A stretch of DNA of 64,000 nucleotides from Escherichia phage vB_EcoP_PE006. The notes under the pieces were generated by a model that was not told where the DNA came from, ran no database searches, and saw only the letters and a list, made by a program, of their open reading frames with translations. The stretch is taken from the sequence record OQ938541.1. The stretch is one strand, 5' to 3'. This document shows positions 28,201-29,336 of this stretch, piece after piece. The position numbers were made by a program, and so were the translations under genes. Numbering within the stretch: the first letter of the stretch is position 1; each line of letters begins with the position of its first letter.

Positions 28201-28841
28201 GTAATCAATCCTTGAAACTCTTCTTTATCGAAGTGCTTCTCTACCACGTATTCATACAGATCTTTTAACTCTGCATAACGACGGTAGAAAGTTCCATGTG
28301 ACATGCCAATAGTTTTCTGAATGTGGTCATGGGGGATACCCAAGAAGATCATTGAGAACATATTAGCTAACTTCTGAGTATCCATCGTATCACTTAAATC
28401 TTGGAAGAAGTAGAAGATACGAGACTCCATGAATGGGTCACCAACAGAGTCTTGCTTATCCATAGCAATCTCTAAAGGACTATCAACCATATCAGGGGTA
28501 CGGAACATATCAGCCTCTGGAATGGAGTAGATACGACGGTCCCCTACAGTCTGCCTATTTGAGCGTATAGACCAGATAATATTCTTGACTCGATAGGTCA
28601 TATGCTCTTGATCTTTCTCGTCCTCTAGGACTCTCTCATCCTGCTTAGCGAAGACAAATCTCCAAGCGTTCAAGAGCACTTCCTGTGCCACATCTTCTGC
28701 TTCATGGTAATCTCTGATATCGTACATGAAGAACTTGTGAACTACTTTCCAGTTCACTCTGTAAAACTCTTCATAGTTTGAGATGTACTTAATAGGGATT
28801 CCATGAATGCGATATCTTGTAGGTGTTGTCTTCTTCGCCAT
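28197..28841 (-). CDS. phage-encoded ECF-like sigma factor
   Basis: Region-2-like [14 protein letters not shown] and C-terminal HTH-like [20 protein letters not shown]. Confidence 0.65.
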
Positions 28842-29101
28842 TATTCTATTCCACGCTCTTTCAGAGCTTCTAACAATCCATTGTGATTAGCAGCACATTC
28901 TGTGTACTGGTCCTGATACCACTCCAACGTAGTGGCTAGTGCTTTTCCTTGAGCACTCTCTAAAAGAGGTAGGTCAACCCTACATTCAGCTTTTAGGTTT
29001 GTTGGTAAGGGCATTGATTGCCTGCTGTTGTCGCTCGTTGAACAAGCTGATATACTCATCACTAGCGCAGACATTATAAAAAACTGGTTTAGTTTTCTCA
29101 T
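28841..29101 (-). CDS. o-spanin-like outer-membrane lipoprotein
   Basis: [20 protein letters not shown]: signal peptide with ISAC lipobox, Pro-containing short mature part; out of frame inside the 3' end of the i-spanin ORF. Confidence 0.5.
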
Positions 29102-29336
29102 AATGCATCTCTTTATAAATGGTTTCCGTGTTCTTCTTCCAGCTAGATAAACCGGTAAGAACTCTCTGGGCAACTTCATCAGCTGCCTTGCTTCTTTCAA
29201 TCTCTAATTCTTGCTGGTGCTTCTCTTTGTCCAGATTACTACTGTCTGTTTGATATTCGTTAAACTTCATACCACCAAAGAATACAAGAGCTGAGAAAAC
29301 GATAAACCCTAAGTTATCACTTAACGTGTTTTGCAT
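28986..29336 (-). CDS. i-spanin-like protein
   Basis: N-terminal TM helix (LGFIVFSALVFFGG) then coiled-coil; start taken at ATG 29336 (GGAGA SD) since the GTG at 29360 lies inside a terminator hairpin. Confidence 0.5.
   Translation of the reverse strand: MQNTLSDNLGFIVFSALVFFGGMKFNEYQTDSSNLDKEKHQQELEIERSKAADEVAQRVLTGLSSWKKNTETIYKEMHYEKTKPVFYNVCASDEYISLFNERQQQAINALTNKPKS

Follow-up and report, generated by a model that had tools for sequence, protein, structure and literature searches.

A predicted overlapped spanin gene pair beside the sigma-factor gene of the phiEco32-like Escherichia phage vB_EcoP_PE006

We analyzed a 64,000 nt stretch of DNA from Escherichia phage vB_EcoP_PE006 (sequence record OQ938541.1; hereafter the window). 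The minus-strand locus at positions 28841-29336 of this phiEco32-like (Kuravirus) phage very likely encodes a two-component spanin of the overlapped class, in which the o-spanin gene begins out of frame within the i-spanin gene. Direct observations, presented below, cover the structure of the genes at this locus, their signals and conservation, their homologues and the promoter motifs. For Kuravirus, earlier work has already described the pair, how its two genes overlap and how far they lie from the endolysin gene; the pair has been catalogued since 2018, and a known, catalogued pair carries little weight as a discovery. The practical use of the analysis lies in annotation, as 28841-29101 is the correct o-spanin gene model, in contrast to the 57-aa 'hypothetical protein' called in its place in many Kuravirus records. 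The locus also illustrates that spanin genes can occur outside a lysis cassette, where a search confined to the neighbourhood of the endolysin gene would miss them.

The 116-aa i-spanin contains only one hydrophobic segment, LGFIVFSALVFFGGM, at residues 9-23 (Kyte-Doolittle 15-mer maximum of 2.23), and the remainder of the protein is hydrophilic. In its orthologue of phage Paul (MN045231), a transmembrane domain (TMD) is annotated at residues 8-23. The protein matched PHROG 1152, 'Rz-like spanin', with an E-value of 7.7e-37. Its small size, single N-terminal transmembrane (TM) domain and periplasmic domain, the topology being predicted, are the features by which i-spanins are recognized (PMC6139136). 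The periplasmic domain contains one Cys.

The o-spanin open reading frame (ORF) begins 235 nt inside the i-spanin gene in the +1 frame and continues beyond the i-spanin stop codon. Its N-terminus consists of a positively charged MRK, a hydrophobic core and the lipobox ISAC ending in Cys20, and the +2 residue is Ser. Among o-spanins, an outer-membrane lipoprotein is recognized by its signal peptide, its lipobox Cys and a +2 residue other than Asp (PMC6139136). The Paul record gives cleavage by signal peptidase II (SPII) between residues 19 and 20 with an SPII score of 18. When the whole window was scanned in six frames for lipoprotein-type N-termini, this ORF was the sole canonical candidate; each of the remaining hits lay either antisense to a larger gene or inside one in another frame, and the scan yielded no other spanin candidate in the 64-kb window. 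The o-spanin matched PHROG 2425 (E = 3e-27) and, weakly, PHROG 456, 'Rz-like spanin' (E = 0.0025). The two genes are adjacent, with the i-spanin gene first, and their 116 nt overlap places them in the overlapped class (PMC6139136). The mature o-spanin has two Cys besides the lipidated Cys20, and these, like the single Cys of the i-spanin, are kept in relatives. Periplasmic cysteines for intermolecular disulfides were found in 507 of 528 spanin systems, although they are not strictly required (PMC6139136), and the Cys complement of both proteins fits such disulfides.

Conservation was assessed in an alignment of the 496-bp locus from the window and eight other Kuravirus sequences (nine in all, 80-97% identity). 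Both frames are open in all nine sequences. The lipobox is retained as [ILM]S[AS]C, the residue at -3 being Ile in the window as opposed to Met or Leu in the other Kuravirus orthologues. The proportion of variable columns is 0.19 in the overlap, compared with 0.36 in the i-spanin-only part and 0.40 in the o-spanin-only part, as expected of two frames that constrain one stretch of DNA. In the o-spanin-only part, variation falls on 35 of 49 third codon positions but on only 5 of 48 second positions. Within the overlap, variation tracks the third positions of the i-spanin frame, which are the second positions of the o-spanin frame, so that hydrophobic residues are swapped for one another in the signal peptide.

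We searched a phage collection for more distant homologues using tblastn. The o-spanin was found in 201 records, at identities down to ~31%, and the i-spanin in 437, and many of these proteins are annotated as o- or i-spanins. The i-spanin homologues share the motifs W-x-Q/K-N ... V/I-F/Y-x-N-x-C ... FNE, and the o-spanin homologues share C-A-x-x-H/Y-N-G-L; the lipobox takes the form AGC, SAC, ASC or MAC in distant homologues. The pairs of Salmonella phages Sasha and 9NA and of Proteus Gorganvirus phages are ~31-41% (o-spanin) and ~32% (i-spanin) identical to the window proteins, are overlapped in the same manner and have the C-terminal motifs in common. In Sasha, the homologous pair ends a cassette that opens with the holin and endolysin genes and continues with a membrane protein gene; it thus stands right behind the holin and endolysin genes, whereas the pair in the window lies 18.5 kb from them on the opposite strand. 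In Proteus phage RS10pmA, the homologous pair directly follows a gene annotated as 'peptidase'. This cassette context of the distant homologues is the strongest functional evidence obtained here and points to a spanin role for the pair in the window. The i-spanins of Felix O1-like phages (Ounavirinae) are ~34% identical to the window i-spanin over ~90% of its length, and the PhiEco32 i-spanin has been grouped with these phages (SpaninDB family 'JH2'; PMC6139136). The o-spanin, on the other hand, belongs to the group 'NJ01/ECBP2/KBNP1711/PhiEco32', and Felix O1-type o-spanins fall into another group (PMC6139136). Sharing of the i-spanin family but not of the o-spanin group indicates that the histories of the two partners are partly separate.

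A megablast search of 27000-31000 against the phage collection matched 97 records, nearly all of Escherichia or Shigella phages, the closest (~96% identical) being phage PH444 and Escherichia phage 172-1 (Kuravirus, Gordonclarkvirinae). The window thus represents most of a phiEco32-like genome, and its genes follow the phiEco32 gene order directly. The 496-bp spanin locus is 92-97% identical at the nucleotide level to seven Kuravirus loci and 80-85% identical to two more. The closest known system is the Kuravirus two-component spanin, represented by phiEco32 genes 39 and 38 and their orthologues in NJ01, ECBP2, KBNP1711, Paul and ZCEC16. The window proteins are orthologous to phiEco32 gp39 and gp38, with ~96-98% amino acid identity, and the locus keeps its place, flanked by the gene-40 homologue on one side and the sigma-factor region on the other. 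Protein lengths (116 and 86 aa), the 116-nt overlap and the gene-40 homologue upstream are all alike in the Kuravirus orthologues. The 2018 spanin catalogue lists the Phieco32 pair as overlapped (ovl) on strand -1, with the i-spanin at 35417-35768, the o-spanin at 35272-35533, an overlap of 116 and lengths of 116 and 86 aa (PMC6139136 supplements). The expert-annotated record of phage Paul contains identical gene models of 351 and 261 nt with notes on the TMD, SPII cleavage and an upstream terminator. Spanins that overlap and that show an N-terminal TMD and a lipobox were also reported in 2026 for Kuravirus phage ZCEC16.

A preliminary description of the window had presented the locus as an overlapping pair of the Rz/Rz1 type, and the comparison with lambda shows how far this holds. 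Like Rz/Rz1, the pair combines a predicted inner-membrane type II protein that has a helical periplasmic domain with a lipoprotein of the outer membrane whose gene uses the +1 frame of the same DNA; both partners carry periplasmic Cys. Both ORFs were present as described, the larger with its N-terminal TM helix and the smaller with its ISAC lipobox, and the spanin reading was borne out by the PHROG matches, the cassette homologues, the Paul annotation and the phiEco32 catalogue entry. In contrast, the lambda genes are fully embedded and adjacent to the holin and endolysin genes, whereas the genes in the window are overlapped and distant from them. The mature part had been called short and Pro-containing. 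It does contain Pro (three residues, no Pro run), but at 67 aa it is not short compared with the 40-aa mature lambda Rz1 with its 10 Pro (PMC6139136). Neither protein belongs to the Pfam families of lambda Rz (Phage_lysis) or Rz1, and no sequence relationship to the lambda pair was detectable. Thus, in the absence of a Pfam or NCBIfam match, 'Rz/Rz1-type' describes architecture and role but not membership of a sequence family.

Several points weigh against the assignment as a spanin pair. Scanning of both proteins against Pfam (E<=0.1) returned only two chance-level matches, far below the cutoffs, and scanning against NCBIfam returned no match above threshold. PHROG 2425, the best family of the o-spanin, carries no functional label, and the proposed function of the pair rests on homology and signals. 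The coiled coil formerly ascribed to the i-spanin was not supported: Pepcoil predicts 0 coils in the phiEco32 orthologue (PMC6139136 table), and a single-sequence AlphaFold2 model, which we used for secondary structure only, suggests helices at residues 4-20, 34-76 and 86-111 with low confidence (predicted local distance difference test score, pLDDT, of 56). The two i-spanin coiled coils of the lambda-type mechanism were thus not predicted and its Pro-rich o-spanin region was missing, and therefore the lambda mechanics may not transfer in detail.

The 57-aa calls raise the question of whether only the internal ORF at 28841-29014, starting MPLPTNLK, is translated. Its product would be a small soluble protein without a signal peptide, and the lipoprotein-like N-terminus would never be translated and would merely mirror the sequence of the i-spanin frame. 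The o-spanin is indeed called from this internal Met in many records, including those of phiEco32 (gene 38), 172-1 (ORF53), IMEP8 and Bas86, but exactly such an annotation artefact has been described: gene callers are biased against overlapping genes (PMC6139136), which accounts for the short calls. Moreover, the frame is open to the upstream ATG in all nine aligned sequences, with the n-region, hydrophobic core and lipobox kept, and distant homologues carry the same signal on different DNA. In phage Bas86, an insertion destroyed the old start, and the protein carries a new signal peptide that has a lipobox of its own (LMAC), which argues that the signal is needed. Translation of the 57-aa ORF only is therefore highly improbable. 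It is even harder to credit that the i-spanin alone is real and that the second frame, in an AT-rich genome, stays open merely by chance. Short alternative-frame ORFs are common in the window, but this one shows the third-position bias past the overlap, has protein homologues in the 201 phage records and carries the only canonical lipoprotein signal in the window.

The genomic surroundings suggest another alternative, namely that the pair is an envelope set unrelated to lysis, for example for lipoprotein-based superinfection exclusion or receptor masking, and is expressed with the middle genes. The neighbours of the two genes serve replication, nucleotide metabolism and regulation, and the endolysin gene is 18.5 kb away; the closest o-spanin family is unlabelled, and the adjoining sigma gene is a middle gene in phiEco32 (PMC8948821). 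However, in another phage group, homologues of both proteins, overlapped likewise, form the end of a canonical lysis cassette. No other spanin candidate was found in the 64-kb window, and to our knowledge a spanin is required with a Gram-negative host. Early production would also be no obstacle for a spanin, as lambda spanin complexes are inactive until the wall is degraded, and making them well before lysis should therefore do no harm (PMC6139136). We consider a non-lysis role very unlikely.

Table 1. Features of the spanin locus and of related genes and signals in the window
Feature	Position	Strand	Basis
i-spanin gene, 116 aa	28986-29336	minus	ORF; PHROG 1152; Paul annotation; phiEco32 catalogue entry; orthologue of phiEco32 gene 39
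i-spanin Shine-Dalgarno sequence, GGAG	29342-29345	minus	Sequence; ribosome binding site annotated at equivalent place in Paul
Predicted TM helix codons of i-spanin, residues 9-23, LGFIVFSALVFFGGM	29268-29312	minus	Hydropathy
o-spanin gene, 86-aa prolipoprotein, 67-aa mature	28841-29101	minus	ORF; PHROG 2425; Paul annotation; orthologue of phiEco32 gene 38
Lipobox I-S-A-C, residues 17-20, then Ser at +2 (outer-membrane sorting signal)	29042-29053	minus	Sequence; conservation
116-nt overlap, i-spanin C-terminus and o-spanin signal peptide (+1 frame)	28986-29101	minus	Sequence; variation; phiEco32 listing
Phage sigma factor (gp36 orthologue)	28197-28841	minus	ORF; PHROG 1740, E 2e-45
phiEco32 gene-40 homologue, 248 aa, first gene of unit	29394-30140	minus	ORF; homology
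Terminator-like hairpin AGCCAC-CUUCGG-GUGGCU and U-tract	29349-29372	minus	Scan; fold -18.5 kcal/mol, z -3.3
Putative holin, 72 aa, one hydrophobic segment	9620-9838	plus	PHROG 11161 holin, E 1e-49; hydropathy; orthologue of phiEco32 gene 16
Endolysin, GH24 phage lysozyme	9868-10359	plus	PF00959, E 7e-32; PHROG 7 endolysin; orthologue of phiEco32 gene 17
SLT lytic transglycosylase protein, 260 aa	16260-17042	plus	PF01464, E 2e-24; counterpart of phiEco32 gene 22
gp36-type motif TAATGTATA, exact, P40 counterpart	30200-30208	minus	Motif match
gp36-type motif TAATGTATA, exact, P13 counterpart	3781-3789	plus	Motif match
gp36-type motif, exact, P26 counterpart	20809-20817	plus	Motif match
gp36-type motif, exact, P58 counterpart	36457	minus	Motif match
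gp36-type motif, one mismatch, P68 counterpart	41513	minus	Motif match

The lysis genes of the window are split. The holin and endolysin genes lie among tail genes in the late structural cluster on the plus strand, 18,482 bp from the spanin genes (Table 1), and because the spanin genes are on the minus strand, no transcript is common to both sets. The preliminary description was thus right in placing the lysozyme gene on the other strand inside the structural operon and in dividing the lysis functions between two transcription units. This layout is common to the Kuravirus relatives examined and has been published as genus-wide. The putative holin has a long hydrophobic stretch at approximately residues 6-35, and its holin label comes only from PHROG and record annotations. 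The endolysin does not have a hydrophobic N-terminus (maximum 19-mer hydropathy of 0.95). In one published Kuravirus paper, the holin orthologue is given a signal peptide instead of a TMD and the endolysin is called a 'SAR endolysin'. The lysozyme was stated to be the only one, and it is the sole PF00959 protein among those scanned; the SLT transglycosylase, however, is also muralytic. The phiEco32 counterpart of the latter, gene 22, is annotated as an internal virion protein, and the SLT protein is more likely to be used at entry than at lysis.

The promoter motifs bear on how the two sets may be expressed. The phiEco32 sigma factor gp36 recognizes a single element, tAATGTAtA, and six gp36 promoters were found experimentally, before genes 6, 13, 26, 40, 58 and 68 (PMC8948821). 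Published start sites are 6-8 bp downstream of the motif. In the window, an exact motif of this type, the P40 counterpart, lies ~60 bp upstream of the gene-40 homologue and occupies the same place in 9/9 Kuravirus loci; the P13 counterpart is the nearest exact motif upstream of the holin and endolysin genes on the plus strand. With such motifs ahead of both sets, both halves of the lysis system would depend on the phage sigma factor. The terminator-like hairpin between the gene-40 homologue and the i-spanin gene is annotated as a terminator in Paul. The most economical reading would be a single unit comprising P40, gene 40, a leaky terminator, the i-spanin gene, the o-spanin gene and the sigma-factor gene, and on that reading the spanins would be made at a lower level than the gene 40 product. 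As for timing, the sigma-factor gene is a middle gene in phiEco32 (PMC8948821), and a published figure legend places the 7-11 counterpart of gene 40 among genes 'proximal to late promoters'.

For the spanin pair, we infer membrane topology, complex formation, fusion mechanism and expression timing as follows. RNA polymerase would start downstream of the motif at 30200-30208 and read through the hairpin to reach the spanin and sigma-factor genes on the minus strand, while the holin and endolysin genes would be read on the plus strand as part of the late structural cluster, a separate but likewise phage sigma-dependent unit. The 116-aa product would be held in the inner membrane by its N-terminal helix and expose a mostly helical domain of ~90 residues to the periplasm. 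The 86-aa product would be exported, lipidated at Cys20 and cleaved by signal peptidase II, and Ser at +2 would direct the lipoprotein to the inner leaflet of the outer membrane. By analogy with lambda Rz/Rz1, the two proteins may bind across the periplasm, possibly stabilized by disulfides, and the peptidoglycan mesh would keep the complexes inactive. Once the holin has let the endolysin destroy the wall, the freed complexes would breach the outer membrane, probably through fusion of the two membranes, to release the progeny.

The sigma-factor gene directly adjoins the pair, as had been noted previously: its ATG and the o-spanin stop codon share one base (TAATG, within 28838-28845). This overlap results from the absence of the macro-domain gene 37, which lies between the o-spanin and sigma-factor genes in phiEco32 and Paul but is missing from the window, 172-1 and IMEP8. 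Gene 37 of phiEco32 is said to hold a predicted sigma-70 promoter that initiates expression of the sigma factor. The best sigma-70-like site in 25000-33000 is ATGAGA-17-TATAAT at 29073-29101 on the minus strand, within the spanin overlap. Scanning for sigma-70 promoters detected 17 sites compared with 19.6 expected in shuffled sequence, that is, no enrichment, and the conservation of the site at 29073-29101 is inseparable from coding constraint. Early sigma production from this site, or coupling of sigma translation to that of the o-spanin, appears rather unlikely; if either were true, a lysis gene would be linked to the master late regulator. What the locus adds to earlier descriptions is marginal and local, namely this stop-start overlap and the sigma-70-like site in the spanin overlap, and both may serve as leads at most.

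The spanin locus of Escherichia phage Bas86 (PQ850622, 721-1758) has a different structure. An HNH endonuclease gene (1194-1544) separates the i-spanin gene from the o-spanin gene, and the former o-spanin start inside the i-spanin gene runs into a stop codon just ahead of the lipobox (MKRLSQFFTMCVLVMSM*). The new o-spanin signal peptide, MLTKKKQKSCLVILLASSLMAC, begins in the 3' end of the HNH gene, and a relic of the i-spanin 3' end remains downstream. The locus looks like a natural transition from the overlapped to the separated arrangement via insertion plus duplication. In the Bas86 record, the i-spanin is annotated as a two-piece join; an Rfam scan of the locus detected no intron and gave no support for a group I intron.

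Further observations concern the surroundings of the two promoter motifs and the leader of the i-spanin gene. In the predicted RNA fold of 29337-29393 (minus strand), CUCUC just past the gene-40 stop codon pairs with GGAGA, the Shine-Dalgarno sequence of the i-spanin gene, and so encloses the terminator hairpin; this helix is only 5 bp long, and the relatives are too alike for covariation. An Rfam scan of 28000-32000 gave chance-level matches or none and no support for an RNA element. The plus strand holds a second exact copy of TAATGTATA (30272-30280) that diverges from the P40-like motif, and copies with one mismatch occupy 30190-30198 and 30281-30289. All nine Kuravirus loci have the divergent pair. 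Its plus-strand copy is absent from the published set of six gp36 promoters and could give rise to an antisense transcript that enters a 395-bp ORF-free region. The P26-like motif overlaps the ATG at 20811 of a 1541-aa ORF. As transcripts start 6-8 bp past such motifs, translation of this ORF may in fact begin at a codon further downstream. Finally, a 25-aa, wholly hydrophobic ORF, MVTYIIYFLALLGIVLLAILFLNWF, is located at 30464-30541 on the minus strand, its ATG overlapping the stop codon of the upstream gene (ATGGTAA). It matched PHROG 24970 (function unknown) with an E-value of 7e-8, and its product is probably a small membrane peptide.

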